DNA from: an uncultured Spirochaetota bacterium
Lineage (GTDB): Bacteria; Spirochaetota; Spirochaetia; SZUA-6; Fen-1364
DNA: 64,000 bases
Assembly (NCBI GenBank): GCA_963768665.1
Contig: CAVYIU010000009.1
Coordinates: forward strand, 434,821-498,820
Direction of reading: 5' to 3'
The notes beneath the pieces were generated by a model. The model saw nothing but the letters and a program-made list of their open reading frames with translations, was not told the DNA's origin and did no database searches. Every line of letters starts with the position of its first letter. The stretch's first letter is position 1. This document shows, piece by piece, positions 2,912 to 62,993 of this stretch. Position numbers and translations under genes: made by a program.

Positions 2912-5244
<2,333 letters not shown>

Positions 5245-6660: not shown

Positions 6661-6681
6661 GCCCTGCGCCGGGCCGCCCCA

Positions 6682-10092: not shown

Positions 10093-10122
10093 GGATTCTT
10101 CCGATGCAATGGAGGGGGAGCC

Positions 10123-11129: not shown

Positions 11130-11142
11130 GGGCACCGCGTAG

Positions 11143-13809: not shown

Positions 13810-14152
13810 ACGAAATTTCTCCCCGCGATCGGCTGCGGGCGGCGCGGTGCATGCGCGGGATCCATCCTGTGGACTCCCGTCGCTCCGTCTCTCGCGTGTA
13901 TCACCGCCGGGCCGTCACCGGCCCCTGCCCTTCCCGTCATCGCGTATCCACTCACAATTTAACGATGGATGGCTCGTAATACAAGTCAGCGCGGCGCAGC
14001 CGTCGCGTCAGGGCTACGCGTCGCGCGCTACTGCGTCGCGTCTGACGCATGACTGCTGCGTTGACACGCATAAGCAGGCCGGACACAATCGACGCAGCGC
14101 GCCACGCGCGGCCCTTTCGAGGCCCGCTGAGTCGCCGCGCAAGGAGCACGTC

Positions 14153-20233: not shown

Positions 20234-20306
20234 TCCCCTGTAGCTCAGTCGGTAGAGCGGGTGGCTGTTAACCACTAGGTCGGCGGTTCGAGTCCGTCCG
20301 GGGGAG
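20234..20306 (+). tRNA. tRNA-Asn (anticodon GTT)
   Basis: Hand-folded cloverleaf: acceptor TCCCCTG/CGGGGGA, D-arm GCTC-AGTCGGTA-GAGC, anticodon stem GGTGG/CCACT with loop CTGTTAA, 5-nt variable loop, T-arm GGCGG-TTCGAGT-CCGTC, discriminator G. CCA is not encoded. Confidence 0.8.
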
Positions 20307-20335
20307 CGATAAGTCCTTTTATAATAAGGACTTAC

Positions 20336-20405: not shown

Positions 20406-21607
20406 TTGAGAAGAAAGTATCCCGAACCGTGGAAGAGGCCAGGCAGTCCTTACTACCAGTGGTGGTACACAGATGCAGGCGGTAAGCGAGTGAGGATCTC
20501 GACCGGCCAGGTCTTGAAGGAAAAAGCGCGGGAGGAGATCAGAAGATACGTAGATAGGCTGACCGCAACGGCTGGCTTGACCACAACCACTTTTCGGGCC
20601 TATGCCGAACCATTCTTCCTATGGCAGACCTGCCCTCGTGTTGCACGTCTTCGTGATGAGGGCAAGAGCATCGGCAAGACACACGTGGCGAAAAGCCGTC
20701 GATGGCTTGAGACGTACGTCTTCGAGGACAAGGTGTTCTCCGACCTATCAATCAAAGAGATCAGGCGCGCAGACATCCTCGACCTGCGAAATAGGCTACG
20801 CGCAGCAAAGGAAGGCCGAACAAACACCGTGAATAAGGTGATCGCAACCATAAAGACCATCCTTAGTGAGGCAGCGTTCCGCCAAGACATTGATTTCAAT
20901 CCCGGGGCAGATGTCGGCAACATCAATTATCACAACTTGAACGAGGGACCTTCACTGTGGATGAGGTACGTCTGTTGCTTTCAGCGCGTCCAGGCGAGAT
21001 GAAGAATAGCCCTCTTGTTGATGTTGTCGTGACTGCTCTGCTTTGCACCGGTTGCAGGGCCGGTGAACTGCGAGCGCTTCGATGGGCCGCGGTAGATCTA
21101 AAGAGCGGAAGGACATCGATTTGCGAAGCATTCAAGAACGAGAAAGAAATCGGCGACCCCAAGTGGGGCAAGAAGCGCGAGATTGTTCTTCCTGGAATTT
21201 TACTGCAACGACTGAAGAAATGGCGAGAAACCAGCAGATTCAACTCGCCTGATGATTTCGTCTTCTCGACTCTTGATGGAGCTCCCCCCGGGCAAACTTG
21301 GATTCGGAATAATATGCTGAGGGTTCTTAAGAGCGCCGATGCCGACAAGGAACTGAACTTCAAGATCGGGGACCGATGGCTTACGCCTCATGCTTGTCGC
21401 CACACCATCAATAGTCACCTACTGGCCGCCGCGGTCCCAGCCTTGCTTGTACAGACCTTCCTCGGCTGGAGTTCGGAAGAAAATAGAATCCTAACCCGAG
21501 TCCAACGCTCATACACTGAGCTTAAGCTCTTCCGTCTCGAAGAGGTTGCTTCAAAGATCGACGAACTCTACGGTAAGAGAAAGGAACTGAAGTCGAAAAA
21601 CGCTTGA
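20406..21607 (+). CDS. tyrosine-type site-specific integrase (phage integrase family); frameshift near 20950-20960
   Basis: N-terminal SAM-like/arm-binding region, then a catalytic domain with TGCRAGELRALRW, HACRHT and a C-terminal Tyr. It is split between ORFs 20406..21002 and 20957..21607 and lies immediately downstream of the tRNA-Asn 3' end. Confidence 0.75.
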
Positions 21608-22369: not shown

Positions 22370-23566
22370 GTGTCAGCCCAGAGGTGCTCCATGGAGAAGC
22401 CCAAACGTCCCTACTCGCTCTTCAAGCGACCCACCGCCAAACAGCAAACGTTCATCTACTACTGCCGATTCCGCGACGAGAACGGCGCCTACATGTCACC
22501 GATCTCCACGCTCCAGTTCTCCAAGGCTGCCGCGCGAAACTGGGCCGATCAGAAGCTGAAGGAAGGCAAAATCGTCCTTCCCGGCAAGCGAGGTACCCCG
22601 TTCGAGACCTTCGCCGCTGGCTTCTGGGACTACGAGGGAGAGTACATTCAGCGCAAGCTTGCTCGAGGCGGCCATTTCTCGAAGATCTTCGCCGAGATTC
22701 GGGCGGGACATGTCAAGAAATGGATCCTCCCCTACTTCTCAGGCCAACCAATCGGCAGCATCCGCCGCCACCAGATTGAGTCCTGGATCATGGGGCTGTA
22801 CAAGGACTCGGGGCTGGTCGGCGCAAGTGTCAACCGCGTGCTCGATTGCATGAAGGTAATGATGAAGGAAGCTCTTCGCCGCGGCTACATCAACACTGAT
22901 CCAGCAGCCGGCATAGAGTCCTTCACTGAGAAGTACAAGGTACGGGGAATCATCACACCGGAAGAGATCCAGGCTCTCTTCAGCAAGGAAGCGCTCTCGT
23001 TGGTCTGGAAGGAACAGCGTGTGCACTACGTCGCCTCGATGCTCGGGGTTGCTACTGGTCTGCGGCAGGGTGAGATCCGGGGACTTCGGAATCAGGATAT
23101 CCATCCAGATTACGTGGCTGTTTGCGGATCTTGGGAGGAGCGAAACGGTCTTCACGGCGCGAAATGGGGCTCGGAACGAATCGTCCCGATACCGTCCCGC
23201 GTTGCCGAAGAGGTCGACCTACTCGCACGGGCAGGAATGTACTCGGCCGCTGACGACTTGGTCTTTGCCGGCGAGGCCCGCGGAAAGCCAGTCCGGAAGG
23301 AAGAACTTGAGGCTCACTTCTACGCTGCTTTGGAGGCTATTGGGATCAACGATGAGGCGAGGAGGAGGCGTGTCCTCGTCTGGCATTCGCTGAGGCATAC
23401 GTTTTACTCCATCATGAAAGGCAGGATCGATTCGGCCAAGCTCATGAAGGTTGTCGGGCACCGCCAGGAGTCTACGAACCTCCAATACACTCATGCGCTC
23501 CCTCGGGACCTCGAGGAGGTCAGGGCGCTTCAGGAAGACCTTATCGGCAAAGCAGTCGGGAATTGA
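22370..23566 (+). CDS. tyrosine-type site-specific integrase (intact)
   Basis: 398 aa. It has an N-terminal arm-binding region and a core-binding domain. The catalytic domain carries R (LRQGEIRGLR), HSLRHTF and a C-terminal Y. The likely real start is MEKPKRPY at 22391. Confidence 0.8.
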   Translation: MSAQRCSMEKPKRPYSLFKRPTAKQQTFIYYCRFRDENGAYMSPISTLQFSKAAARNWADQKLKEGKIVLPGKRGTPFETFAAGFWDYEGEYIQRKLARGGHFSKIFAEIRAGHVKKWILPYFSGQPIGSIRRHQIESWIMGLYKDSGLVGASVNRVLDCMKVMMKEALRRGYINTDPAAGIESFTEKYKVRGIITPEEIQALFSKEALSLVWKEQRVHYVASMLGVATGLRQGEIRGLRNQDIHPDYVAVCGSWEERNGLHGAKWGSERIVPIPSRVAEEVDLLARAGMYSAADDLVFAGEARGKPVRKEELEAHFYAALEAIGINDEARRRRVLVWHSLRHTFYSIMKGRIDSAKLMKVVGHRQESTNLQYTHALPRDLEEVRALQEDLIGKAVGN

Positions 23567-24874: not shown

Positions 24875-27656
24875 TTACCACCCCTTTCTTAGCACCTCCA
24901 ACACCTCGATCGGATCGATGACTCTAGGGTTGCTGTCCCAATCCTCGTCTAGGACTGCACTGTACTTCGCATCGAAAGGATTCACTTTCAAGGCCGTTGC
25001 CTGATCGATTCGCTTCGCTGCTTCCTGAGAATCGCCTACGGCCATGTCGATCCAGACGTCCTCGAGCGTGTCCGGAATCTGCCCGAACAGGCCGTGGATT
25101 GCCTCCAGTCTCTGCGAGAGAAGCTCATGGACTCGATCTTCTACGGAATTCCGATAGCGAAGGTTGGCGATCCACACATCAGGGAAGCGTTGGCCGATGC
25201 GCTGGATCCGGCCTTTTCGTTGTTCCAGCCGCGTCGGATTCCACGGCAAATCGATATGGATTAGGCTCCCAAGGCGCTGCAAATTCAGTCCTTCGGAAGC
25301 GGCATCAGTTCCGAGCAGAATCTTGATCTGGTTGTCCGCGACCATCCCCTTGATTTCGTCGCGTTCTGCTCGGCGGAAATTGCCACTCTCCCAGATGCCA
25401 GACCGACCTGAGCCGGCGTAGAGACCGATCATCTGTCTTCCGGTCAGTGGATGTGATGAGAGCCTTCGGCCGATCCAGGACACCGTATCGTAATACTGCG
25501 AGAAAAGGATGCAGCCACGATCCATCCAGGGGCCCGTAGCTGCCGATTGCTCATGAGATCCTTCGAGGAGATACCGGAACACTTCAGCGAGCTTGGGATC
25601 CTCCTCGTTCCCAGACTCAAGAAGCGTCTGGCAGCGATGCAGAGATTCGATTTCTTTCCCGGTAAAGTCGGAAAAGGAAGATTGTAGAGCCACGTCATCG
25701 AATAGATCTTCATCGTCTTCGGCATCCTCCGCTTCGCCCGCTTCAGCTTTGTCCAGCAAACGCCTAATCGTGATCCTGCCGGCCTACTAGGGAGCTTCCG
25801 GCCCGGCGAAGGAGGAGGGTCTTGAAAAAGCCTGCCGACTGCACTCGCTGCGCGAGAAGGCGACAGAAGGTCTCCGCTTCCCTGTAGGCGTCGGCGAGAT
25901 ATGGTCCCAGATCCAGCGCATCAGCTTTGCTTTCCCCGTACAGGACCACATGCACCGCAGGCAGGAAAGGCTCTTTTGTCACTGGATTCGTTGTGTTTTC
26001 CAGGTACTGCCTCGTCCGGCGGACAATGCACCGCAGGAGGGGATTATGCTTTGGTGGATATTCCTTGAGCCAAGGACCCTCAATCTTGTTCCTTCCCGGA
26101 AGGCCAGGGGGATACGGCCATAGTCCTCCGGGAGAAGCGTCCATTTTCCCGGGTCCATTTCAAACCTGTCACGAATATAGCGGATCACATCTGCGCCGTC
26201 CTCGCTTGCGTAGATTACTGGGTCCCGAATGTAGTTCCAAGCATCACCTGGGTGGTCCGGAAGGGGCTTTGCCCTGGTGGCGATGTCCAAGCATTCGGCG
26301 GGCCTCCACCATGGACTGATCCTCATGACCTGCTCCCCCAATACCGAAGGATGTCCGAGGGCCAGCACACTCAAGAGGTCCCATGCCTCGACTGGATGCA
26401 ACTGAACGGGGGTCGCGGTTGCGAGGAGCATGGAACGAGCCCTAGGAGATATTTTCTGAAGGAACTCCATGAGCTTGTTCGGATCGGCTTTTTCATTCAC
26501 TTCGTCGGCGACAGCGCCGACTTTTGGTATCTTCCGTCGGCGCGCCCTATGTGCCTCATCCGCGATGATACAGAGATAGTCGCGGCCAAGGAGGATATCC
26601 CAGACCTCCTTCCGCCCTCGGGTGACGAGCCCTTGCGAGACGAGACCGAAGCGGCGCGGACAAGAGGCGAGTCCCTCAATCCCCCGTGAGGGATATTCAA
26701 CTCCGTTCTCGTCGATCCATGCGTTTCCCGACCAGCGCGCCGATGGCATCCTCAATAGGTCCAGCATTTCTACCTGCCACTGCCCGAGTAGAGCCTTGGG
26801 AGCCAGAATCAGGATCGGCCCTGGGCCTTCGAGGGCCATGAGGAGGGGCTGCCATGGCCAGTTGTACGGTTTTGCCGAGCCCCACCTGGTCCGCCAAGAC
26901 CAGCCTGGCGGAAGCGCGGCGGTGTCTCTCAATCGCAAGTCGAATGAAGTACTTCTGGTGAGGCCAGAGCCCCTGCTCGCGTCGGTAGACCGGACTTTCA
27001 ACCGCCACTACCGATGGTTCGGGTTCCTCCTTCCACGCTTTGATGGCAATGACCTTCCGGCGGGCCAAACGCCCGAGGTCGGCGCACACGAAGGGGCAGC
27101 AGGCAAGGTCTACCGCCCGTTTGTCGTGCCATAGTGCATCAAATTCTCTTGCAACCCAAGACACCGCGTCAGGGCTATCGTCTTCCCAAAGAAGCTCATA
27201 GTTCAGTTTCCACGCCGTAGCACTTTCATTGACGCTGCCCAGGAATGCGGTTGCTCGACCGTCGGGGTACCGGATGAGGCCGGCCTTCCCGTGGATAAGG
27301 CCAAAGACCTCGTCTGGCAGGACCTTAACCTGGAGACGACCACTCGACAGGAAGCGATACAGTGCTTCGATTCGGGGCTGAGCGGCCGCGGGCAACTTCT
27401 CCGGCTCCCCTCGACACCAACTTGATCGCATCGCCTGCTGCGCAGCCTGGGCGGTCATAACGTCCCGAGCATCAAGGTCTGAATTGCAGACGATCCTAAT
27501 CGGGCCTGAAACCGCATCTAGCTCCTCGCCTGCGATTTCAAAAAGGCTGGAGCGGAAGTAACCGGCGATGCGGTCGTATGAGGAGGCGCCTGTCAACCGC
27601 GCACGGAGGACGTCAGTACCAAGGGCTTTGCTTCGCGAGGAGTGGCGCGTGATCAT
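24875..27656 (-). CDS. PLD-family nuclease domain fused to SNF2-family helicase (defence-cassette helicase); multiple frameshifts; the N-terminal boundary is approximate
   Basis: N-terminus has IAGYFRSSLFE, HGKAGLI and GSVNES (PLD-like HxK...GSxN). It is followed by SNF2 motifs LADQVGLGKT (I), DEAHRAR (II), LLATATPVQ (III), and helicase-C motifs LLGTDAASEGLNLQ and QRKGRIQRIGQ. The gene is spread over ORFs 26697..28649 (distal part), 25979..27001, 25764..26144 and 24875..25759. Confidence 0.7.
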
Positions 27657-30592
27657 CCGTGGTCCCCGCGCAGCAGGCCGGGCAAGCAAGCGGGCAGACT
27701 CCGTATCCTCCTTCCAATCCTCCATCCCTACGATTTGACCGAGAGGAGCAAGCCAGTCCAGGATGGAAATGAGCCTTTGAGCTGACTGCCAGTAGTCGGG
27801 CAGCTCAGTCTTCAGGTAGCGAAGGCCTGCACCCGGGTTCTCGTCCCGGACAGAAGCCTGGATGGCAAAGAGCAGTTGTCGCAGGACGCTCCCTCCGAAA
27901 CCGTCGGCTCCCAAAGGGCCCAGATCGCGGTTGCCAAATTCGGAAGCGGTTTTTATGCGGGTTTGGTTCGCAGTGCCAGAAGCTAGGATAGGCTTCACCT
28001 CCCGCACGCCGAAACCACGGGCAAGCTCCTGGTAGACCCCTTGGCGTCGCTCGCCCCGGCTTTCCACGTCCAAGGCCCGCAGATACAGCCGCTCATCGGG
28101 ATTGAGGCGTTTCCATACATCCTCAAGGCCACGCGGCACGAGGTAGTCGCAGGCGATCGCGATGGCCCGATCAATAACCTGCTCGAAGCGCGGCTTCGGC
28201 GGCAGGTCCGCCTTTGATCGGCCCTTCCCGCGGGGGCGTTCCGGCACCGCCCGGAAAAGCTCGTAACTCACATCTTGCCCGTCTAAGGTTTGATACTGGG
28301 TAAGAACACGGAGAGCGGCTGCATAGGCCGCAAGCTGGTAGTCGGTGTCCCCAAAGTTCGGATCTGACGCGTCGTCTAGGGCACGCATCGTGTCGATCTG
28401 ACGTTTCACCTCGTCTTCTACGACCGGGTAAAGCTCATCAAGAAAGGCGTTCTCCGCGTGGAGCCGCTTGCGGAGCACGAGAAGCACCGTGCCCTGAACG
28501 TAGTTGCCCTTTTTGATGCCCCCGGCGGGCGTCTCCGTAGCGATTGTCCAAGCCCCGCTAACCTTGAGTCCGGATGCCCAGAGGATCATGCCGAGGTCGG
28601 CCCAGACTGCCCGGACTCTGATGCGTGAACATGACGAGTTGAAGTCCATTGTCGGGCATGTGTTTGGTCAGGTTTGCATAAACGTCCACCATCCCATGCT
28701 TGAAGTCATCGCCGGAGCCCTGCACCGCCAAGGCCTTGCGGCCATCGGGAATCCATTCGGGGAAGGCCTTGGGAAGTAGTTTTTCATACCAAGCCAGAAA
28801 ATAGTCGGCCAGTTCGTGGTAATTGACCGCGTCAGCATAAGGCGGGTCGGTAATCCAAATGTGGTTGGGGACAGTAATAGAGCGGGCGTCCATAGGCTCA
28901 GTCTTGCCGACAGTAACCTCCAAATCATTAGCTCTATCAAATAGTGGCCAGGCTGTGCTAAGTTTAGAAATCGGGCGTACGCTGAAGTTATAGAAGGTGT
29001 TCAAGGCTTGGTTGCTGAAGACGTGAGAACCACCTTCATTCGCGGCATTTGACATCCAAATGCATAACTTAGAATTCCAGTCAACGACCCTTCCAATACC
29101 CAACATCCCTGCGGCCAGGAGTCTGCCTCGCGACATGTATTCGGCCGCAATCAGCCCATTCACTATCAACTGGCGCGGTGTAAAAAGATGATGCCAGTGA
29201 GTCCATCCACGTGTTCGTATCGGCTCATCGGTCTTCTCCCCATCCGTTGGGATGGCCATGGAGGGGAGGTATCCTTCCCCCCACCATTCCTCGAGGCGCT
29301 CTCTCAGAAGCCTAAGAACCTTCTGCTCATTTTTCAGATCAAATTCGCTGGGAGCCCGATATTCCTTTGTCCCGTCGGGCTTCCGCCAGCGGATGCAGTA
29401 GAGGCGCTCCTGGAACACATCAGTAGGGCGCGGAACGAGGTCGTTCTTTTCCCAGCGGCGAAGACCCCCCGGACCCCGAAGGCTTTCCATCGGCCAGGAG
29501 CGATCACGGTTGGTAGGATCGATCACCCGACTGTCTATTGCTGTGCCAGTGCTGCCACTCGCGGCTGCAGTCCAACTGGCCTTGTCAGGTTTGGTGATGA
29601 TCTCAATATCAATGTGATCGCTTCCCTTCCGTTTCAGTTTCGCAATGACCTTCGTCCGCTCCCCTATCATCCAACTCGGTGCCAAGGGGATGTGGTATTG
29701 GCACCCTTCGGGCTTAACTTCCACGCAATACAAGTACGCTTCCGCCTGCCAGCCTTCCTCGCTTCTTTCGATTCCCCAGGCCGCAACTTTCTCTTCGGCT
29801 GCACGGAAAGCCGTTTCCTGCGCAGCGATTACCTGTTGCTGTATCTCTTTGCCGCCGCCCACAAGGTTGAGGCTGGCCCAGGTAAGGAGCGCGGCCACGG
29901 GATTGAGGTCGCTCCCGTATGCCTCGCAGCCTAGCCGCGCAGCTTCGAAAGGGATTGAGCCCCCGCCGCAGAAGGGATCTCCGACCTTCGGCCTCTGACC
30001 GAAGCTCCGTTTCCCCAATTCAACAACGAGATCCTGGAGCGTAGATGCCTTCGTGCCCAGATGGGCGTTGATCTCGGCCCAAGCAGATACATCCGGCCCG
30101 GTATGCTGTTCAGGCCTCACGCAAAAGCTGATACGTTCTGCGTAGGGCAAAGCCCTGAACTCTTCTCTTGAATAAGGGAAGCGCCGAAGTGCATCAAGCT
30201 CTGTTCTTGCAGTGCCATCCAAGGACTCCCAGATCTCCGAGCGCATTTCCTCGCGCCGCTCCTCGTCGGCTTCTTTCCATTCTTCTCTGTAGGACGGCGC
30301 CCGGTTGAGCAATTCCCGGTCCGGGATGCTGGCCTTGCGCCTCTCCCACAGGCCATCGTCGTCCATCGTTAGGAGCTTAAGAAAGACATCACGGTCCTTT
30401 GCCGGATCCCCGGCTTGCGGGCATGAGAAGCCCCAAAATGCTCGCCCTGACCAGGATCAGAGGCTTGCGCCCCCACCACTTCCCTAAGCCAGTGAGAGTT
30501 TGCCCGAGATTCGCCTTCCGCTCCTTGTAGCTTTCTGCGGAGAGACGGGCGATGGGGAACTGGCTTTCAATGAAGGTACGATCGTCTGTCAC
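27657..30592 (-). CDS. DUF1156-family putative N6-adenine DNA methyltransferase; at least 2 frameshifts; boundaries approximate
   Basis: N-terminal DUF1156 signature RTFIESQFPIARLSAESYKERKANLGQTLTGLGKWWGRKPLILVRASILGLL. MTase motif I is DPFCGGGSIPFEAARLG and motif IV is ITDPPYADAVNY. The frame is broken near 30370-30390 and near 28560-28650, and the C-terminal region continues into the first ~330 codons of ORF 26697..28649. Confidence 0.7.
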
Positions 30593-30873
30593 TCCGTGAG
30601 TCCTCGCTTCGGCAGCGTTCGGATTTGCCAATTCGAAGAGAATCCGAGAGATTGGGGGTGACTTGGTCGAAGGCGTGTATGAAGGGGCCCGGGTCGTGGA
30701 GGTCATGCCCTCATACGGCGAACAATGTGTCAACACAAGAGGCAGTGTGCTTTGAGTTGTGCCCACGCGGCTCCGATCAGGGCCCTTCGAAGGCTGTGAG
30801 TATCTCGATGCTCCGGCAACGAGAGCATCCTCGCTCCACCCGCTCTGCGTCGGCATGCCGCCAGGGCCCACGG

Positions 30874-31491
30874 CTAGAAAAGGCTCATCTGGCTTGCCCG
30901 CAGGAGCTCTTTGCGCGCCTTTGGAGGAATGCCTTCGCCCTTTACAATGGGGTTCTCCGTTAGTGCGAATCGCAGGGCTTTTCGCCAGCCAATCCCTCTT
31001 TGTTGCGCCTGACCCGTGGCCGCGGCCGTCATTGTGTAAAGCCACCAACGCTCCTCGGGCGCTAGACCTTCCCAGTTGCGGATAGCCTCAGGAATGAGTG
31101 AGGAATCAGCATCTTCAATTGCCCACAGCAGAACGCAAAGCTCCTTCCCAAGAGAGGCATGCAGAGGAACTGGCCCCTTCTTTGGCTGGCGGGGGACCGC
31201 GAGCCCTGAGTTCCTCAATCTGTGGCCAGCTTCTTCCCAAAAGACTGGCCCAACCTCCTCCCAGCGGAACCGCTCTACGATGGCGCGGAGTGAGGGATCG
31301 TTAGGACCAAGGTTGAGAATCTCGGTCCCTCCCTCAGCGACGTCCAGGGCTCGGTGCTCTGAAAGCGTGACGAACGCCGTTTCCTCCTGGCTTGGGGGCA
31401 ATCGGAGGAGAAAACCGTGACTGGCCTCTTCGGGAAGGAAGCCAAGGCCAATGCAGAGCCGTCCTTTTCTCGCGATAGTCATTCTGGCCAT
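30874..31491 (-). CDS. hypothetical protein, DUF3780-like by position and size
   Basis: 205-aa ORF wedged between the DUF499 and DUF1156 genes, as in the conserved DUF499-DUF3780-DUF1156 arrangement. I cannot confirm sequence-level identity from memory. Confidence 0.4.
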   Translation of the reverse strand: MARMTIARKGRLCIGLGFLPEEASHGFLLRLPPSQEETAFVTLSEHRALDVAEGGTEILNLGPNDPSLRAIVERFRWEEVGPVFWEEAGHRLRNSGLAVPRQPKKGPVPLHASLGKELCVLLWAIEDADSSLIPEAIRNWEGLAPEERWWLYTMTAAATGQAQQRGIGWRKALRFALTENPIVKGEGIPPKARKELLRASQMSLF

Positions 31492-31495
31492 TTTT

Positions 31496-34400
31496 CTAGT
31501 CCTGCACCACTTCCTCCGGTACGAGGTCGCTTCCCGCGGCCTTCAGCCAGTCGAGTAGGGCTTGACCGGTGCCAAACCAAGAGTGGGCACATTGCAGACG
31601 GATGACTCCGTCTTTTATGAGACCCTGAAGGACATCACAGATCGCTCGCAAGTCGGCCGCGCCGTAACCGGTAGAACTACTGCCGAGGTACTCTACAGAT
31701 TGATCCCCATTCGAGCTTTCCACTCTTAGGGTTACATCGAAGGACTTCACTCCGTACTTTTCCATTGCCTCAATAAACTTCCACGTGGATCCCGAATCGT
31801 CGAACTTCTGCCGCCGCGTCCACTTGCATGGCCTGTGCGGATCGATCTGAAAAAGACTTGGTCCCCCTGGAGTGGGGATGGCGATCTTAAGCTCATTCGA
31901 CTTGATTCCCTCGACCTCCGCAACGGCCAATACATACTTGCACCCTACAGGCGGCACAAATGGCCCGGCGTAGCTGCCCCCGCTTTCCGGCGACCTTCCA
32001 TCTGTGCTGTAGCGAATCATGCCTTCAGGCAGGCTGCGCAAAGTCACTTTTCTGGTCGCGGATTCTATACCGTACTTGAGCTTCGGCTCGCCCACCCACT
32101 CCACAGAGACGCCGGTAGGGTGCTCCCCGCTTGAGTCGACGCACAGGAAACTGTATCGCAGGCCTTTGGCCTCGAATCGTTGGAAATCGCCCACCCTGGA
32201 GCTTGCCTCCGTCGGTTTGTTCCTGCCCGCTTCATAGTAGACACGGTCCCCGTGCAGAGCCTCGATCTTGAGCCAACTCACGCCGCGGTCGTCCCGTGAA
32301 AGGAAGTATGGTTTGACTCCTGTTTCTGGTTTCGGGAAAGGGCCTTTGAGCACATACGTCCCTTGCTCGCGCCAATAGTCCTTTCGGATCGCCTCCGCTT
32401 TCAGTGTGTCCAGCGCATCGGGCCGATGAAACTGCCAAGTAGTGTTCGTGGCTGCCTGTCGTTTCACCTCGGCCCATTGAATCGGGCTCGAAATGAAAAG
32501 CCTTTGTTCACACTTCTGGCGGAACTGATCGCTTGCGACCTCTACGGTGAATTTCTGAGCGTCGAGAAGGGTCTTTCTGAGAACTTCCTCTCCCCGCCAA
32601 GCGTTTCCCTTGAATTCGAGGATGATAGACGCCTGCCGGAGCGCACCGCCAACATGCGGATACACCAGGATGTCGAAGGCCTGCGTGAGGGCTGAAGAAA
32701 ACTGGAAGAGGATCCTGTCCTTAAGCATATCGAGGGCCTTCATTTGCGGATCACCAGCAGGTGTGTTCTCTGCGTTCAGTTCCTCCTCAATGCTCTGCAA
32801 GGCTCGATACTGGCGTGCCGTGTCCTTGACGTTCTCCATCACCATTTTCGATCCAGTGAGAAACATGACTCGGTTTTTGAAGGTCTGTTGGGACCACCAA
32901 TCCTGCCACTCCTTTGACAGCGCCAAGTTGCCCGAAGCGCCCAAGGGTTCCGCAAGGATGAGGCACACGCGGTCCTGCTCAACCTGGACCTCGCTCAAGG
33001 CCGGAAGAGCCTCCAAGGTCTGGTAGAGGTCTTTCAGTACAGGGTCGAAACGCTCCTTCAGGAAGCGCCTGAGCTCCTTGGTCACGGACTCCTGATGTAG
33101 TCCCACCGCTGTGCTGCGCAGGCGCGCCGCCAGGTTCTGCTGGTTCTTGAAGAAGAGCCGCCCGTCCTGGGAGCGATGCAAGTACCATGCCCGGATGTCG
33201 AGGCTATCCAGTACCTTAGATTTGAGCCCGGAAAGGTCCCTGCCGGGCCGCTGGAGAAAGTCGTAGATTTCGTATTCGCGCAGGCCGTGAACGGCGCCTG
33301 CCGTGGTGGAAAGCGAGGAGAGAAGTATGAGCTTCGCTGTCTCGCTTCCGTCTGAGTTTCCGTTCTTCGAATCGAGGACTTCAGCTTCTGCCGTCCCCTC
33401 GTGGCAGATGTCGTGCGCGATCGCCTCCGAGAGATTTTGGTTAATGGTCCGAATCTCCGAGGAGATCTCCTGGTCAGAAAGGTCAATGTCATAAGGATGG
33501 ACCAACAACAGTTCATCCGCCTTCCCGGAATTCCACAAACTCGATACGACCATCTGCAGCAGCCTTATGACACCCCGTGTCTGCTGAAAACCTTCGTTTT
33601 CTTTGAAGCGCCCCAGCAGTTCTCGCCATGCTGGATGGAAGGGATAGGCAACCTGGACGTTTTGATAGATTCCCTCGGATGTGCTGGATGTCAGACCCAT
33701 CTTGACCGCTTCGGCATGACTGCTTCGATAGTCGTCCGCTACCGAGTTTCGTACGATTTCTGCAGGTAAGGAATCAAAAAGACGACACTGCAGTATCCTG
33801 AACAGCTCGTCTCCTTGCGGATTCACGGGGGTTATGGGCAGCGCGCCGCGCCGCGCCTCGTTTCTTAGATCTGGCAAGAGCCTTGTTGATCAGGTCCCCG
33901 CCCTCCTGGTAGCTTGCCCCGCTCAGGTCGCTCAACACAACAATGGCGTTTGGCATATCGGAAACGGCTATCATGAGGTTGGCGAGAGCTGTGGTAGTGA
34001 CGACGGACAAGTCGGAGTTGCCTATGGCCACGGAGCGAGCATTTTCCATATAGGGCGACAGCTCATCCATGAGGATGATGATCGGGGAATCGCCAAGTAG
34101 GGTCCGCCACGCCTCTGGTCCGGGTGCGGAGAGTGGCTTGTAGTACGGGTTGAAGAGTTCCTTGTTTGCCAGTTGCCCGGCTATGCTCCCCCAGATGCCC
34201 AATGGTGCATCAGACTGCCGGCCGTTGAATCCGACGACCCGAACTGCGCCGAGATTCTTAGCAGGATTCCAGTCGGCAAGTATCCGCTTCCTCAATCCTG
34301 CGTCTCGTGCGAGGATTCCAAGCGCTATCATGGAGTGCGTCTTGCCGCCACCCATCGCTTGGGAAAGCTGGAAGATGGAAGATCCGGTGGCATCGCCCGC

Positions 34401-34583
34401 CAGATGGCGAAAAGCCCTGTCGATGAGTGTCTTCATGCCTTCAGTCATGTAGTTTTCGAGAAAGAACTCTGCGCCGTTCACTTGTCCATTTAGAAATGTG
34501 TCCAGGTTCAGGACAGTGGCGCGGCGATCCTGACGAAACACAGATGGCCGAGGCTTGCAGACTGATGACAGTGAGTTTGACAC
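31496..34583 (-). CDS. DUF499-family P-loop ATPase (large, about 1029 aa); frameshift near 33830-33880
   Basis: Walker A QAMGGGKTHSM and Walker B IIILMDELSP near the N-terminus. Coding continues in ORF 31496..33877. The size matches DUF499 proteins (about 1000-1100 aa). Confidence 0.7.
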
Positions 34584-35386
34584 TGGCTACTCCAAATCTG
34601 AAGGCATCCTGTCTGCCAGAGATTTGTATCATCGTGAAGCATTAGAACCCGGTCTGTCAATATTGGGTACTGGTTGGACTGCGGCCGCTTCCAAGAACGA
34701 GAAAGAGAAGACAAGAATGCGAGCCCAGGATGTCCCGACGTGCCCCGCAGAGTCGCCGGTCTGACGGTAAGTGGCAAGAACTGACACGCCTGCCATAGCG
34801 TCAAGCCTGCGAACTTGTCGCTTTGTGCAACGGTGCTGCTGGGACCAGCGAAGGCCCGAGGCGCAGCTCTGCAACGACGGTGTGCAGTGAATATCCTTTC
34901 ACCCTATGCCGGCTTCCATCAGGCCCAGGGTGTGGCATGGCGAAAACCGCAGGTAGACAACAATTTCTTTCGGGGAAACCAGCTCTGCTCAACCACCCCG
35001 ATAGTGGCAAGGACGTCGACGCCTTACTGCATCTACGGCGCGGCCAGATTCGGCGCCTTGGGGAGGTGACTGCACCTTGCGAATAGCCAAGGGGTGAGAT
35101 CAAATGTCTCGACGGCCCGCCTCCTGGTCTTCGAACTCCTGCTACTATCCTTCTCTCGGCACGAAGTGGCCAAGGTGCCCTTGGATGACGAAAAGCCACG
35201 CGATCGGTTCCGGACATGATGGCCAGTGCAAAGCCTCCCAACGAGCGCGAGCAACTTGTGCACACGCGAAGAGGAGCGCGCACTGTGGTAAAGATCGCAA
35301 GAAGCTCAACTAACGGCTGATCCTGGCTAATCGGTCCACGGAGGTCCTGCAGTCTGAACCCGCGGCTTCGTGCAAGGTGCCTTTCA

Positions 35387-36523
35387 ATGCAGAGTGCCTC
35401 TCAGGAGCCACCAACGAGCAAGTCTTATCGCCTGCCCAAATTGTTTACAGAAGGCGTGCGATCCTCTAAACTCGTTGCCGACGAAAGAGGGGGCTGCACA
35501 ATGAGATCGCCTACGAAACAACTGTCCTTCCCGGTCTTGAAGTTTCTTCAAGGCAAGTACTCGTTAGTGGTGTTCTCTGCCGACGCCCGTACTATATGGA
35601 ATCACTTCGCAATCAATCGGCGCTTAGAGGACAAGGACGAGGGTTACCAGAGGACGCTAAAAGAAGGCCGCGTGAGGAAAATCGCCCGATACATAGAAAG
35701 CGGCAACGCACTTCCCCTTGGTATCCTCGTCTCTATGGAGAAAGGAAAATACAAGATCGAGGATGACCATATCGAGATAGTCGACGAGCCAGATGTTGGA
35801 TGGATTATTGACGGGCAGCATCGGGTTGCAGGTGCGCATGAGGCCAAGATCGAGATTGACATTCCGGTTGTCGCCTTTCTTGAGCTAGATCTCGAGGAGC
35901 AGATCAGACAGTTCGTAACGGTCAATAGGGAAGCCAAGGGAGTACCTGCTTCACTCTATTACGACCTCCTCTCACATCTTCCAGCGGTTAGTCCGGCGAA
36001 CAGAGCAAAGGAACGAGCAGTTGACATTGCGCATAGCCTGAGGGACAACGAGGAATCCCCGTTCTATTCCCGAATCGTTGCAATAACCAGCCCCAAACGG
36101 GGCGAACTGTCCTTGAGTACGTTTGCTTCCAAGGTCTCATCGCTCGTTGTCACGGACAAGGGGATCCTGTCTTCATACACTTTCGAAGAACAGAGCAGAA
36201 TTATCGACAATTACTACCGCGCAATGAAGAATGTCTTTCCAGCCCACTTCAAGGAAGAGGAGTCCGTATTCTTCAGGACTACCGGGTTTCGGGCACTGAT
36301 CCGTGTCTTTCCCTCGGTGTTCTCTTATGCCCTTAAAGCGCAGAAGGGATTCACTGTTGCAGATGTAATGCACGTATTGGGCAACATCAAAGACTTTGAC
36401 TTCGACACCTGGAAGAAGATCGGCACCGGGAATGCAGCTGAAATACAAGCTGCCGACGAACTCCGAAGCGAGATGGAGGACATGTATACCGAGAGCGGCG
36501 ACGCCGCAAAAATACGCCTGTGA
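35387..36523 (+). CDS. DGQHR-domain protein (DndB/ParB-like nuclease superfamily)
   Basis: Exact DGQHR motif in WIIDGQHRVAGAHEAK, with a preceding acidic strand. About 50% GC, well below the core. An alternative start is MRSPTKQ at 35498. Confidence 0.7.
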   Translation: MQSASQEPPTSKSYRLPKLFTEGVRSSKLVADERGGCTMRSPTKQLSFPVLKFLQGKYSLVVFSADARTIWNHFAINRRLEDKDEGYQRTLKEGRVRKIARYIESGNALPLGILVSMEKGKYKIEDDHIEIVDEPDVGWIIDGQHRVAGAHEAKIEIDIPVVAFLELDLEEQIRQFVTVNREAKGVPASLYYDLLSHLPAVSPANRAKERAVDIAHSLRDNEESPFYSRIVAITSPKRGELSLSTFASKVSSLVVTDKGILSSYTFEEQSRIIDNYYRAMKNVFPAHFKEEESVFFRTTGFRALIRVFPSVFSYALKAQKGFTVADVMHVLGNIKDFDFDTWKKIGTGNAAEIQAADELRSEMEDMYTESGDAAKIRL

Positions 36524-37446
36524 GAGATCTCCAACGAACAATTGGGCGCGTAGGATCGAGGGACTGGAAGGAAATATTCGGCTATTGGCAAAACGCGCTA
36601 TCGTCAATGTCATTCCCCATCGAAGACTTTGAGTCCCCTGGCTGTGGTCAGACCGATCTTATGGACCGCATTGGAGATGAGCTGGCCGAAATCGAGGCTA
36701 TCTCAACGAACAAGACGCACTTCAGGGGAGTGGAAGGAATTGAGTACAAGGTAATGACCGACGCTGTCGCGCTATTCTACAAATCACAAAATGCGATAAA
36801 GTCGGGGCAGTCCGATTTGCTTGCAGGCCTCAAGACGTGGAGCATCACGAACTACTACGAGGCGTCCTATCTCTCGACCAGATGCCTGCTGAATATGTTA
36901 GGCCTTCATGTGTGGCGAACTACAACGAATAGAGAACTCCTTATCGACCTATTTCCTCGAATTGAGAAGCGTCGCGGAGTTTTCATAGAGTCCCAGTTTC
37001 ACATTATTCGCCAAATGGACCACTGGGAAGTATGGGGTCTTCTTCAGAGGGTGCTTCGCACAACTGCAAATCTGCCGTTTGGGCGCGAGCTAATTGAAAG
37101 CGTTGGGAAAATCGAGTCGAAAGCGTTTGCAAAGCAGCGAAATCGAATCCTATATTCCGCACCACAATGGGTGTTCGGTGACCTAAAGAGCGAGTCACTC
37201 CCCCAGAACCTCGCAGAACTTGTGGGGACGGCAGAACTGAAGGATCTACTCGAAGGAGATCTTTCAACAGTAGTGATAGCCACAATGATGTTCATCGCAA
37301 CGGTCAAGCTGTTCCAGGCAATCGCTGAGGATAATCCGTCTCTCCGAATTGAGTTTTCCAAGATGACGGAAAGCTACTCCTCGGCCAGTAATGCAATGAC
37401 CTCGCAGTTCGAAGCATCGATTGCGGGCTTGTTCGCCACGACCTGA
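36520..37446 (+). CDS. hypothetical protein translationally coupled to the DGQHR gene
   Basis: GTG start overlapping the upstream stop (GTGA). 308 aa, about 50% GC, no recognisable domain. Confidence 0.5.
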   Translation: MRDLQRTIGRVGSRDWKEIFGYWQNALSSMSFPIEDFESPGCGQTDLMDRIGDELAEIEAISTNKTHFRGVEGIEYKVMTDAVALFYKSQNAIKSGQSDLLAGLKTWSITNYYEASYLSTRCLLNMLGLHVWRTTTNRELLIDLFPRIEKRRGVFIESQFHIIRQMDHWEVWGLLQRVLRTTANLPFGRELIESVGKIESKAFAKQRNRILYSAPQWVFGDLKSESLPQNLAELVGTAELKDLLEGDLSTVVIATMMFIATVKLFQAIAEDNPSLRIEFSKMTESYSSASNAMTSQFEASIAGLFATT

Positions 37447-39968: not shown

Positions 39969-40880
39969 ATGCCAAAAAGGACGAACGCATTCCAGCGGCT
40001 AATCCTCGCCATATACGAGCAACTGAGCGCGCCGGGTGGCTCGATCACCGAGTCGGCCATGCTACCCGAGCGCTCTGGCGGAACCCTCCGCGAGGTAGAC
40101 ATCCTGCTTCAATCTCGGCTCTTCGGCATCGACCTTAAGATCGCGGTCGAGTGCAGAGGACGCAAGGACCGAGATGACGTCACATGGATCGACGACCTAA
40201 TAGGCAAGTACCACGACTTGCCGGTCGACAAGGTCATTGCCGTATCAAAGTCAGGCTTCAGTGCCGGGGCAGCCGCCAAGGCTGCAGCATTCCGTATAGA
40301 GACACTTACCCTGACGAAGGCGTTGGAGACCAACTGGCCGGCTCAGTTCGCAAAACTGGGCCTCGCCCTGTTGACCCGACAAGACATACCAGTGTCGGTC
40401 GCCATAGCTACTTCCCCAGCGGCGCCTCTTACCCTGACGCCATCGACAATCGTCTTTGGTGGGGACGGAACTCCTTTAGGTGGAATAGAAGGATTGGGCC
40501 AAGCCCTGTATCGGCAAAAGCTTCCCGACATACACAAGGCTGTGCTCGAAAACGCACCCCGCCTTCTCAAGACGCTGCAAGACGTAAAGGAGAAACGCCT
40601 GTCGCTCGAGATGACGCATGGCCTCTCATCGCCGTGCTATGTCGTAGCGGATGATGGTAGCACCAAGCTTTACATACAGACCGTTACCGTGCAGCTGCAA
40701 TGTGCCTTCACCGTTGAACTGCTGAAAGTCGACCATTACGTTCTTGGGAACTCTCAGATTACGACGGCTACCGCGGGGCCGCCAGGACAACCAGTATCGC
40801 TCGTGGCTGTCCAGTCTACAGACAAGCCAAACCAGGCAACCTTCCGGATAACCGGACAGCCGAACTGGCCCTCCACATAG
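39969..40880 (+). CDS. restriction-endonuclease-like (Mrr-cat, PD-(D/E)xK) domain protein with uncharacterised C-terminal domain
   Basis: N-terminal EVDILL ... IAVECRGRK ... fits a PD-(D/E)xK core. It is flanked by low-coding sequence. Confidence 0.45.
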   Translation: MPKRTNAFQRLILAIYEQLSAPGGSITESAMLPERSGGTLREVDILLQSRLFGIDLKIAVECRGRKDRDDVTWIDDLIGKYHDLPVDKVIAVSKSGFSAGAAAKAAAFRIETLTLTKALETNWPAQFAKLGLALLTRQDIPVSVAIATSPAAPLTLTPSTIVFGGDGTPLGGIEGLGQALYRQKLPDIHKAVLENAPRLLKTLQDVKEKRLSLEMTHGLSSPCYVVADDGSTKLYIQTVTVQLQCAFTVELLKVDHYVLGNSQITTATAGPPGQPVSLVAVQSTDKPNQATFRITGQPNWPST

Positions 40881-41096: not shown

Positions 41097-42155
41097 TCAC
41101 CCCTGCCTCGGTGAGACCTTTTCTGGTTCTTTGTACGGCTCGTTCTTCTTCAGCACCCAGAACGCGGACTCTGCCAGGTGCCGAGCCACAGCACCTATGG
41201 CTACCGAGGAGCCCTTTCGCCCGCGAACATGAAGGTACAGCCTGGCGCAGTGTCGCGTGCTCCACCCCCGCTGAGCATGGTGAGCGGCCACCGCATTGGC
41301 CGCTTCGATGAAAGCCCACTTCAGGTACTGGTTGCTTTCGGTTCTCATCCTGCCGTAGTGTGTCTTGCCTCCGCTGGAGCTCACGCGGGGGGTCGTGCCC
41401 GAATAGCTGGAGAACTGTGGGGCACAGGGAAAGCGCTCGATGGTGCCCACCTCCCGCTCGATGACGATGGACAGGATGTCTGCCACCCCTGGCAGACTCT
41501 TCAGCAGCCGCATGTTCGGGGTAAGGGCAATCTGCTCGCGAATGCGCTCTTCCAGTTCAGCGATCTGCAGGCTGAGGAAGTCCAGCAGTTGCAGGTGCTG
41601 CGACAGACAGCGCCCTGTCTCAGAAGGGAGGCGGGCAACAGTTGTCTCAAGCCATGCTCGACCCCCCTTGGAGAACACGCTCACCCCCTCCGCGGGTGAC
41701 AGGGCGTACTTGGAAAGCAGAGAGTGGATACGATTTTTGATGGATGTACGCCACGCGCACAGAGCCACGCGCGTACGAGGCAACTCGCGTTGGTCACGGA
41801 GATTCGCCGGTGGCAGCCAGACCGAGGGCAGGCTGCCGAGTCTCAAAAGAGTGGCCAGTCCGTTGGCATCCAGTTTGTCGGTCTTGTTGACGTGACCCAT
41901 GAGAAGCTTTGCCTTGGAAGGGTTGGTGAGCAGGGGCTGGCACCCTGCAGCTTCGATCTCATCGGCGATCCAGTACCAGTTGCCCACGCACTCCAAGGCC
42001 ACGGGGGTGCCGCTGGGAAAGCGAGAGAAGAATGAGGACACCGCACCGGGCTGGTGGTTGAGGCGGACACGATCAAGGACTTGGCCCGCGGCGTCCTGGA
42101 CCTCAAGCTGGGAATAGTGCTTGTGCGCGTCACACCCGATGGAAAGCGATTGCAT
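41097..42155 (-). CDS. IS110-family transposase
   Basis: N-terminal DEDD-type LSIGCDAHKHYSQLEV. C-terminal Transposase_20-like LLKSLPGVADILSIVIEREVGTIERF. About 350 aa. Confidence 0.8.
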   Translation of the reverse strand: MQSLSIGCDAHKHYSQLEVQDAAGQVLDRVRLNHQPGAVSSFFSRFPSGTPVALECVGNWYWIADEIEAAGCQPLLTNPSKAKLLMGHVNKTDKLDANGLATLLRLGSLPSVWLPPANLRDQRELPRTRVALCAWRTSIKNRIHSLLSKYALSPAEGVSVFSKGGRAWLETTVARLPSETGRCLSQHLQLLDFLSLQIAELEERIREQIALTPNMRLLKSLPGVADILSIVIEREVGTIERFPCAPQFSSYSGTTPRVSSSGGKTHYGRMRTESNQYLKWAFIEAANAVAAHHAQRGWSTRHCARLYLHVRGRKGSSVAIGAVARHLAESAFWVLKKNEPYKEPEKVSPRQG

Positions 42156-42401
42156 AGCGAACCTCCTCGCGGGCACAAAAGGCCCGACTACGCTCGACTG
42201 TAGCGAGGAATGCCGCGCTGTGATATTATCATGTCGTTGCAGTTGTCGCCTTAACGTGGTTATTCGTGCGGCGGGGGCGGTCTAGGAGCGCGTAGGGTAT
42301 AGCAGGGACGCGATGGACCTCTGCGGCAGCTGGCTGCCGATCGAGCCCAGGGCGCCGCGTTCATCTGGTAGTGAACTCTCACATCCCGTCCTCTTTGGTG
42401 G

Positions 42402-43916
42402 CTACCCCATGCACGGAAGCTCATGCAACGCGTTTTCAGGGCCTTCAATCATCCTGTGACGGAACAGTTTCAGCAGATTGTGCGTCAGGCAGACGAAGGC
42501 CCATTCGCGGCGCACCTTCGCGCGCCCGCGTTGTGAGAACCTACGGAAGCCGCGCGCCTGCTCAATCTGCCCGAAGACGGGTTCCACGATCACCTTGCGC
42601 CGTGAATACACCAACTTGCCCGCGCTCCCTTTCAGTTTCTCACGCATGAGAGTCTTGGGACTCTGCTGCCCAGCAGAACCCCCCGATGGGACGGCGGCCT
42701 CAGTCCTCTCGCGGCCGACGGCGATGTAGGGATCAATCCCACGCTCCTGCACCTTTTGCACGTTGTCTGCTGAAAAGTAGCCGCTATCAGCCAGAAGCCT
42801 CTGGGGCCGCTGGGCATGCATGCTGAGCATTCTCTCCACCATCGGCACCAGGTACTCCTGGTCGGGAGACTGGTTGCTCACCCCGTGGGCGATGATCACC
42901 TGGTGAGCTGCATCCACGATGACCTGTGCGTTGTAGGCCTGGATGTAGGCCCCGTCCTTGACCATGATGCAGCTCTCTGGATCTGTGAAGTTGCGTTGCG
43001 CTGCCGCCTTGGGCTTGCCGTCCATCTCGCTGGCTACCCGATGCAAGGGCAACTCTGGCTGCCTACTTCCCTTCTTCTTTTCGCTGTTCCTCTCGGGAGC
43101 AAGGGCGTCGGCCTGCTGGCTGGCTTTCGCCGCGCGGGTGCGTGCACGTTTGCGCTCGTGGTCCGCCAGCGCTTCGCCCTCGCTTTTGGCGCTCTGCCGC
43201 TGGGCCTGCTCGCGCAACTCCTCAGCTCTGGTTTCGGCGGCTTCCTTTTCCAAGGCGGCCTTCGCCTCGCGAAGCCGCAGCAAGCGTGTCTCCCGTCGGG
43301 CCAATTCCTCAGGCAGATCCTCTTTGTCCTGCCCGGGCCCGTACAACTCATCCTCCTCCCGATCCACCTCATCGGCGCGTCGCAGCAGCTCCGCCACCTG
43401 CTCCTGTAGACGTTTCTCTTCCTCGTTCATCCGCTTGTAGCTCATCGCCTTGTGCTTGCTCGCTGCCGCCTTGATCTTCGCCCCATCCAGCGCTACTGCC
43501 CCCAGCTTCACCAGTCCGGCCTCCTGGCACAGGCGCAGCGCCTCCACGAACAGCCTGCCCAGCGCTTCCCCGTGCTCCAGTCGAAACTGGTTGATCGTGG
43601 TGAAGTGCGGATGCTGGCCACCACTGATCACTCGAAAAGCCACATCTTCATGCGTGGCCCGCGCAATTCGCCGAGAGGAGAACACCCCAACACTATATCC
43701 ATACACCAGAAGCCCCGTCATCATTCCGATCGCGTAGGGCCTCTCCCCGCGGTGATCCTTGCGTTGGACCTCATCCTCGATCTCGCCCAGATTCATCTGC
43801 TCCATCACATCCAGCACGAAGTAGGCCAGGTGTTTCGGGGGCAGCCATTCCAGCGGAGACGGGGGCAATAGGTATGGTTGTCGCGGCTCCCAAGGGCGAT
43901 AGTTTTTCTCTCCCAC
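42402..43916 (-). CDS. IS1182-family (IS5-related) DDE transposase
   Basis: N-terminal DUF772-like region (LLPPSPLEWLPPKHLAYFVLDVM ... MMTGLLVYGYSVGVFSSRRI), a K/E-rich coiled-coil middle, and a C-terminal DDE region (LLADSGYFS). 504 aa. Confidence 0.75.
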   Translation of the reverse strand: MGEKNYRPWEPRQPYLLPPSPLEWLPPKHLAYFVLDVMEQMNLGEIEDEVQRKDHRGERPYAIGMMTGLLVYGYSVGVFSSRRIARATHEDVAFRVISGGQHPHFTTINQFRLEHGEALGRLFVEALRLCQEAGLVKLGAVALDGAKIKAAASKHKAMSYKRMNEEEKRLQEQVAELLRRADEVDREEDELYGPGQDKEDLPEELARRETRLLRLREAKAALEKEAAETRAEELREQAQRQSAKSEGEALADHERKRARTRAAKASQQADALAPERNSEKKKGSRQPELPLHRVASEMDGKPKAAAQRNFTDPESCIMVKDGAYIQAYNAQVIVDAAHQVIIAHGVSNQSPDQEYLVPMVERMLSMHAQRPQRLLADSGYFSADNVQKVQERGIDPYIAVGRERTEAAVPSGGSAGQQSPKTLMREKLKGSAGKLVYSRRKVIVEPVFGQIEQARGFRRFSQRGRAKVRREWAFVCLTHNLLKLFRHRMIEGPENALHELPCMG

Positions 43917-44258
43917 ATCAAAAGAGAACCAGATCCAGGTGAGAAAGTAAAATCCCCGGGCGTTCCCTTGGGGTCGCCACGGGCATCTACGCCCTACGCG
44001 CTCCTAGCGCAGACCCTGATCGTAAGCCTTGTCCTTGCTCGCTGGGCTCTCCCGGCTATGGGCGTTCATCGAAGTATCTACTTCATAGCGCATCTTATAG
44101 GCGTCGCCTTTCCTACCGTCACGAGCTTTGTGGGGCACGAGTATATCACTTTTGGACGCTATTCTGTCGACGCTCTGGTTGGAGGTTTTTTGAAAGCTTT
44201 TGGAAAATCACGGCAGGGTGGACATTCGTAGGTGCCGCGAGCCATCGACCACGAGGGT

Positions 44259-57291: not shown

Positions 57292-57355
57292 TTCTCTTGC
57301 GCAATCCGGTCGGCTGATTTATTGTCCAGCATCAGAAAAGTCAAGGAGATGAAAA

Positions 57356-61835: not shown

Positions 61836-62065
61836 TCTGAAGTAGGCGCACCGGCGCCAATGATTCGATCCTGCGCCGGAGGCTGGTCGCTGATTTCTCA
61901 TGCGTCCTGTACACGGCCAGCAAACGGACAAGTCCGGACGACATTCGTCTGTCTGGTAAGCAGAGTGAACGGTTCACGGTACCGCATGTTCCCTCCTGGT
62001 CGCACAGGTGGTCACAGTCACCGCTACCCGATTCTACTCCGCTCCCCACATGCAATTATGTATAG

Positions 62066-62413: not shown

Positions 62414-62516
62414 AGCAATTTCCCGAAGGGAAATTGCGAAGCGCGGCAGCTATTTGCGCAGCAAATAGCGAGAGCGCCTCATGACGGGCCAAGCGCGCGA
62501 ACCGGCGCGCCCGGGC

Positions 62517-62981: not shown

Positions 62982-62993
62982 CGGTTACCCGGT

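Follow-up and report, generated by a model that had tools for sequence, protein, structure and literature searches.

What kind of system is encoded by four genes, three of them interrupted, in the genome of an uncultured Spirochaetota bacterium, and is that system intact in the organism? The genes lie at 24875..34583 on the minus strand of a 64,000-nucleotide stretch of contig CAVYIU010000009.1 (assembly GCA_963768665.1, positions 434,821 to 498,820), which we call the window and whose coordinates are used throughout. They had been described, in an original prediction made from the sequence alone, as a restriction-modification-like cassette combining a DUF499 ATPase, a DUF3780-like protein, a DUF1156 N6-adenine methyltransferase and a fusion of a phospholipase D-like (PLD) nuclease with an SNF2 helicase. 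We conclude, with a probability of about 80%, that the cassette is a member of the defence family known as Gao_RL or Gao_29, which corresponds to MANTIS and to the Type-2 DUF499-centred BREX-related system, and that it resides in a tRNA-Asn-linked defence island. In this reading, the single-base insertions and deletions (indels) that interrupt its genes are likelier sequencing or assembly errors than mutations, so that the organism itself probably carries an intact system. The cassette is a divergent addition to an already known defence system.

A 2026 survey in Nucleic Acids Research (NAR) recognized Gao_RL in 1120 taxa as the Type-2 DUF499-centred BREX-related system, marked by a standalone DUF3780 protein (98% of the 1120 taxa) and an HKD-helicase effector (83%). 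In a September 2026 preprint, Gao_RL/Gao_29, earlier analysed for restricting a subset of DNA phages, was renamed MANTIS, with components MtsA-D, and dissected in Pseudomonas aeruginosa. There, MtsC hemimethylates an asymmetric 6-bp site, methylation requires both MtsA (Walker A K80, Walker B E174) and MtsB, and restriction requires all four proteins and both ATPases and is best at inverted unmodified sites. The preprint also reports that the target-recognition region of MtsC dictates the specificity of methylation and restriction alike, and that MtsD (PLD H122, Walker A K260) resembles a SauUSI dimer. The original prediction had regarded such cassettes as a bioinformatic prediction with an uncharacterised mechanism, a view overtaken by the mechanism given in the MANTIS preprint, the class assigned in the NAR survey and four NCBI models for anti-phage proteins.

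Results

Minus-strand open reading frame (ORF) fragments were chained in the same direction from 34583 down to 24875 in the ORF listing of the window, and profile searches were then run on the raw fragments and on frame-corrected proteins. The four co-oriented genes, in the order mtsA-mtsB-mtsC-mtsD, are all on the minus strand: mtsA (31496..34583) encodes a DUF499 AAA+ ATPase of 1028 amino acids after correction; mtsB (30874..31491), whose frame is intact, a standalone DUF3780 protein of 205 amino acids; mtsC (27653..30592) a DUF1156 N6-adenine DNA methyltransferase of 978 amino acids after correction; and mtsD (24875..27656) an N-terminal HKD/PLD nuclease fused to an SNF2-type superfamily 2 (SF2) helicase, 926 amino acids after correction. 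Pfam and PADLOC agreed with the domains and the extent that had been predicted for these genes, and all of the motifs originally quoted were found in the cassette.

Indels were mapped by tblastn of the proteins of a related locus (L001) against the window, together with inspection of the three frames, and seven single-base events were found in the cassette. The mtsA gene carries one, an extra base near 33872 that splits it into ORFs 33774..34583 and 31496..33877. Three are in mtsC, each an extra base, at 30408-30411 (in GGGG), at 28610-28612 (in GGG) and at 27680-27682 (in CCC), the last of which masks the stop codon. The three in mtsD comprise extra bases at 26845-26848 (in CCCC) and near 25786, and a missing base at 26093-26094 (at AA, in an A run). 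The claim that all four genes carry indels did not hold for mtsB, which is full length when compared with its homologues, and the seven events do not amount to one per gene. Seven one-base edits restored proteins of 1028, 205, 978 and 926 amino acids with zero internal stops, and these aligned end-to-end with the homologues of five related loci. Six internal indel junctions were confirmed by a closer homologue, L005 (75–79% identity), and the seventh, located 8 codons 5' of the mtsC stop, was placed on the basis of the conserved C-terminal "...ARLLAGLLRGDHG" in L001 and the closest homologues. After correction, the TGA of mtsC, which ends at 27653, overlaps the ATG of mtsD at 27656. The start of mtsC, a GTG at 30592, was confirmed by the closest homologue, which is 93% identical across the first 60 residues.

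Family models identified each component. Pfam scores, with the gathering score in brackets, were 89 bits for DUF499 (23), 127 for DUF3780 (27; PF12635), 75 for DUF1156 (24; PF06634), 39 for PLDc_2 (27), 37 for SNF2-rel_dom (24.9) and 48 for Helicase_C (23.5). The raw fragments already exceeded the gathering score for DUF499 (on two fragments), DUF3780, DUF1156, PLDc_2 and Helicase_C, while SNF2-rel_dom passed on corrected MtsD only. In that protein, PLDc_2 spans residues 52-176, SNF2-rel_dom 233-433 and Helicase_C 758-821, and no TUDOR or restriction endonuclease (REase) domain was detected with Pfam. Consecutive parts of the fragments matched the PADLOC models DUF499 (PDLC02192), DUF3780 (PDLC02191), DUF1156_MTase (PDLC02189) and PLD_Helicase (PDLC02193), with E values of 1e-31 to 1e-160; the DUF499 model gave 199 and 411 bits on the two mtsA fragments. 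We also used NCBIfam NF042961-NF042964, four consecutive equivalog models for "anti-phage-associated" DUF3780, DUF499 and DUF1156 proteins and for a "phospholipase D-like domain-containing anti-phage protein", and each corrected protein spanned essentially the whole of its model. MtsC scored 1224 bits with NF042963, passing the cut-off of 1000 (residues 8-974 aligned to positions 1-959 of 960), and MtsD scored 1136 bits with NF042964, passing the cut-off of 1100 (residues 1-926 aligned to positions 2-895 of 895). The models and the literature thus bear out the methylation-based, restriction-modification-like defence that had been predicted, and place it in Gao_RL/MANTIS.

The residues expected for activity are also in place. 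MtsA contains Walker A GGGKT (K81) and Walker B IIILMDE (E174); MtsC contains methyltransferase motif I DPFCGGG (residue 205) and motif IV DPPY (582-585); the nuclease of MtsD has H122, K124 and GSVN at 140, and its helicase GLGKT (K262), DEAH at 366 and QRKGRIQRIGQ at 812. The catalytic residues that mutagenesis showed to be required in P. aeruginosa were all conserved, with MtsA K80/E174, MtsC D621/Y624 and MtsD H122/K260 corresponding here to K81/E174, D582/Y585 and H122/K262. In a profile of close homologues, the least conserved segment of MtsC lies at residues ~480-570, just N-terminal to DPPY, and is presumed, by its position and variability, to be the target-recognition region. Sequence searches of the PDB matched MtsD to the RapA, ISWI and INO80 motors, which identify its generic SNF2 class only, and returned zero matches for MtsA, MtsB and MtsC in a copy of the database without MANTIS structures.

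Relatives were collected by scanning reference genomes with a central fragment of MtsC, and five loci were fetched in addition to one Pfam-annotated metagenome contig (P0003). The scan yielded three loci with intact cassettes at 60–65% identity. In a collection of 5.8 billion proteins, the nearest proteins were 73–75% identical, and MtsB was 75% identical over its full length to its L005 homologue. The third-closest relative is the P0003 contig, in which the DUF499, DUF3780, DUF1156 and PLD/SNF2 genes form a tight operon encoding 1030, 206, 980 and 927 amino acids. The same annotated cassette occurs on RefSeq plasmids, such as that of Desulfosarcina sp. BuS5 (L004), and the plasmid relatives found were at most ~51% identical. 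Gene order was identical in L001, L003, L004, L005 and the P0003 contig, and all of the relatives examined, which come from unrelated phyla and include plasmids, share it. None of the genes on either side of the cassette in L001 or L005 is matched in the window, and in L004 and the P0003 contig the neighbours, as annotated, belong to different gene types. Since flanking genes are not shared with the relatives, we take the four genes to be the unit.

Individual relatives differ in detail. In L005, a Fic-domain protein (10526-11701) is encoded at the mtsC/mtsD junction. L004 has an ATP-binding protein at the same junction (9943-11400) and a TIR-domain gene just 3' of mtsD (14529-15485), and its MtsA is annotated as two coding sequences, DUF499 and FN3-associated. 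L001 (15474-16961) and L003 (15466-16953) carry a 495-amino-acid ORF that overlaps the end of mtsD and has no counterpart in the window; the overlap suggests translational coupling.

Several observations count against membership of an intact MANTIS/Gao_RL system. Two of the NCBIfam matches fell short of their cut-offs, with MtsA scoring 738 bits against NF042962 (cut-off 1200; residues 5-1027 aligned to positions 3-1025 of 1025) and MtsB 116 bits against NF042961 (cut-off 200); both aligned along the whole of their models. No gene for an MtsR-like (Arc/CopG) repressor was found in the leader upstream of mtsA; MtsR is optional in the family. Even in the P. aeruginosa reference system, the nuclease activity of MtsD has not yet been directly measured (MANTIS preprint). 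Finally, the frames of mtsA, mtsC and mtsD are interrupted as assembled, and the distribution of the interruptions argues against a purely uniform error process. The cassette contains 7 indels in 9.7 kb, compared with 5 in the ~26.5 kb of other tested genes, a ~3–4-fold higher density (binomial p ≈ 0.02, or p = 0.05 if the C-terminal mtsC indel is left out), and the ratio of insertions to deletions was 6:1 in the cassette vs 1:4 elsewhere (Fisher p = 0.07). Close homologues could be used for the cassette, which made indel detection more sensitive there.

The last of these points bears on a rival reading, namely that the locus is a genuine MANTIS/Gao_RL pseudogene array, recently inactivated, perhaps through selection against a system that was a cost to its host or attacked the host itself. 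Three of the four genes are broken as assembled, at the raised density just described, and the integrase of the island is frameshifted as well. Decay of bacterial pseudogenes is deletion-biased, contrary to what is seen here, where six of the seven events are insertions. The corrected cassette has no in-frame stop and no larger deletion. Among 247 alignment columns with a single residue in all 42 homologues compared, corrected MtsC departs from 1 and the homologues themselves from 0–6, so that replacements at conserved sites are not in excess. A relative-rate test against the intact sister copy in L005, with L001-L003 as outgroup, gave 89 vs 77 lineage-specific replacements in total (p = 0.39), and none of the four proteins showed acceleration. 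Short homopolymer runs account for five of the seven indels; four fall in stretches of 3–4 G or C bases, and the deletion falls in an A run.

Defects of the same kind are found in housekeeping genes of the window. A 1-nucleotide deletion near 13268 divides the ftsH gene (11993-13914, minus strand) between two overlapping ORFs, with the junction after FLKTP, and the TIGR01241 model is divided accordingly, positions 19-184 matching one ORF and 183-597 the other; this split is the chief reason for regarding the assembly as prone to indels. A DEAH-box helicase gene (TIGR03817; 2911-5394, minus strand) is broken into three ORFs by frameshifts near 4555 and 3945, one a deletion and one an insertion. 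In rmlB, which encodes dTDP-glucose 4,6-dehydratase (48848-49810, plus strand), the model is matched to position 238 of 321 and the rest is in another frame, implying a 1-nucleotide deletion near 49620. With the island integrase, these are the frameshifted genes among those tested outside the cassette. Other tested genes of the window, including mfd, glgC, trpS, pfk, metK, smpB, rmlC and rmlD, are intact, the last two adjoining rmlB.

Because in-frame stops are lacking, amino acid change is not in excess relative to the sister copy, and other genes in the window are frameshifted too, we consider assembly error the likelier explanation, and we put the odds at roughly seven to three for sequencing or assembly artefacts over real, very recent inactivation. 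On the artefact reading, the organism would probably carry the cassette intact. The original attribution of the indels to assembly error is therefore plausible, with ftsH and other genes affected in the same way, and unproven, given the excess density in the cassette. On the same balance, a genuine pseudogene array seems unlikely, and it is somewhat less likely still that the excess and the insertion bias reflect real biology in the form of several slippage events at short G/C runs, driven for example by selection against autoimmunity, in an operon variant that lacks MtsR and has the long spacer and leader described below. Programmed frameshifting and phase variation are implausible by inference, with seven sites, runs of only 3–4 nucleotides, and indels that are absent from the relatives.

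A different assignment of the cassette, as the conserved core of the methylation-associated defence system (MADS) or as a subtype of BREX or DISARM, is very improbable. It draws on real likenesses: BrxC and the DUF499 protein MtsA are related, the methyltransferase is similar to those of Type-3 BREX, and the C-terminus of the MtsD helicase matches DrmD and BrxH models weakly. However, the original prediction that the cassette might be the core of MADS conflicts with the described composition of that system, a mad1-8 operon of eight genes with Mad6-8 mandatory and a bipartite recognition site, and the MANTIS authors, who overlap with those of MADS, list it as a separate system. There are four genes here, and their immediate neighbours do not recur in the relatives compared. 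With Pfam, no PglZ, DrmA, DrmB or DUF1998 domain was detected in the cassette proteins. BREX, in which a PglZ phosphatase accompanies BrxC and PglX, was rejected because no cassette protein has a PglZ domain, and PglX models matched weakly, at 25 bits. DISARM, which comprises the helicase DrmA, DrmB (DUF1998) and the PLD protein DrmC, was rejected because DUF1998 is lacking and the DrmD and DrmA models match only the generic C-terminal lobe of the helicase, at no more than 110 bits (DrmD 110) vs 230–250 for PLD_Helicase. Hma, or Type-1 BR, was rejected because DUF3780 is present and the nuclease is of the HKD type; HmaA, HmaB and HmaC scored 84, 81 and 89 bits vs 230, 532 and 411 for the corresponding Gao_RL-type models.

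That an orphan methyltransferase, a helicase and an ATPase lie together by chance, with no joint function, is a negligible prospect, favoured by the broken reading frames and nothing else, and refuted by the synteny described above, by the overlapping or abutting of the cassette genes in most relatives, and by the presence of DUF3780 inside the locus in 98% of the taxa surveyed.

Two non-coding segments of the cassette region were also examined. The spacer between mtsB and mtsC (30593..30873, minus strand) is 281 nucleotides long and absent from the intact relatives examined; the two genes abut or overlap in 4 of 5 relatives and are separated by an accessory gene in L005, which encodes a 478-amino-acid protein without a Pfam match (6008-7444). 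The spacer showed no homology to this accessory gene, had no copy elsewhere in the window and no repeats, and gave no significant RNA fold (z = -0.34). The leader upstream of mtsA (34584..35386) occupies 803 bp between mtsA and a divergent gene, close to the ~800-bp non-coding leader originally described, and presumably holds the promoter. Within it, no ORF matched any Pfam family, and no Rfam family reached the gathering score; across the window, Rfam found only tRNA and tmRNA. Promoter and terminator scans were at background level.

The island begins at its left edge with tRNA-Asn (20234-20307, plus strand), followed by a first tyrosine integrase (20406-21607, plus strand), which is frameshifted into ORFs 20406..21002 and 20957..21607, and a second, intact tyrosine integrase (22370-23566, plus strand). 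The tRNA-linked integrase and the defence-island setting that had been proposed are thus both present. A search of the rest of the window for an att-like copy of the tRNA-Asn 3' end found none that would set a right border for the island. The G+C (GC) content of the cassette is 57.5%, compared with 62–65% in the flanking core; a contrast is real, but it is smaller than the 50% vs 67% claimed before.

The gene divergent from mtsA (35387-37446, plus strand) encodes a DGQHR-motif DndB/DpdB-like protein (57 bits with Pfam DndB, 101 bits with PADLOC DpdB) and is followed by an overlapping 308-amino-acid ORF with no family match; together these could form another module of the island, associated with defence or DNA modification. 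A protein with an Mrr_cat restriction endonuclease domain is encoded at 39969-40880, and IS110 (41097-42176) and IS1182 (42402-44003) transposases follow, surroundings that make a typical mobile defence-island neighbourhood. Farther along the window are a gene for a protein with a caspase-like domain of the EACC1-associated type (57353-58231, plus strand) and, within 62063-62984 on the minus strand, tmRNA (62063-62413, tag ANNADYALAA) adjoining smpB (62517-62984).

Discussion

By homology to the P. aeruginosa system, the cassette would be expected to work as follows. MtsC would use its variable target-recognition region to find a short asymmetric site and would methylate one adenine on one strand, acting only once the AAA+ ATPase MtsA has loaded it on DNA and MtsB has stimulated it, with ATP hydrolysis by MtsA providing turnover. 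On incoming DNA, the MtsABC complex would recognise unmodified sites, inverted pairs above all, and recruit the dimeric helicase-nuclease MtsD, which would translocate at the expense of ATP and cut with its metal-independent HKD nuclease. This agrees with the division of labour first proposed for the four genes, in which the methyltransferase marks self and the ATPase and helicase-nuclease restrict.

The locus provides one more divergent, chromosomally integrated example of MANTIS/Gao_RL, at most 75–79% identical to anything in the collections searched, and the host of this tRNA-Asn defence island is a high-GC bacterium. The target-recognition region of MtsC is unlike that of its relatives, which makes a new specificity probable. 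The value of these results lies mainly in annotation: the fragments belong together under a single four-gene system, and the assembly merits a warning that it is prone to indels. The questions that the cassette raises are those already posed for MANTIS, concerning what MtsB does, how MtsD acts as a nuclease and how the system is regulated without MtsR, and it adds none.

The closest known system is MANTIS of P. aeruginosa AZPAE15024, with which the cassette shares gene order, domain architecture, near-identical positions of K81, E174, H122 and K262, the DPPY motif, the overlap of the mtsC stop with the mtsD start (ATGA), and a variable segment of the methyltransferase between motifs I and IV. 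It differs in that no MtsR (Arc/CopG) gene was found upstream, in having the 281-nucleotide mtsB-mtsC spacer and the 803-bp leader, in its divergent sequence, for which the closest database relative reaches 73–79% identity, and in the seven 1-nucleotide indels that interrupt three genes as assembled. Hma, or Type-1 BR, resembles the cassette in having a DUF499 ATPase (HmaC), a DUF1156-type N6-methyltransferase (HmaB) and a helicase-nuclease (HmaA). In contrast to the cassette, it is a three-gene system without DUF3780, and it has a TUDOR domain at the N-terminus of its helicase, whose nuclease is of the REase fold rather than HKD/PLD. Type 3 BREX (BrxC, PglXI, BrxHII and others) resembles the cassette in its methyltransferase core and in its AAA+ ATPase (BrxC/DUF499), which is homologous, and it hemimethylates 6-bp asymmetric sites as MANTIS does. 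The cassette, however, is without PglZ, BrxA, BrxB and BrxL and has an HKD nuclease-helicase fusion as its effector, and restriction by MANTIS prefers inverted site pairs. In SauUSI and the Type III and Type ISP enzymes, too, an SF2 translocase is joined to a nuclease, of the PLD or another type, and these enzymes share ATP-dependent communication between sites and a preference for site orientation. Unlike them, MANTIS depends for methylation and targeting on DUF3780 and on an AAA+ loader that is a separate protein, and its orientation requirement is graded, not absolute.

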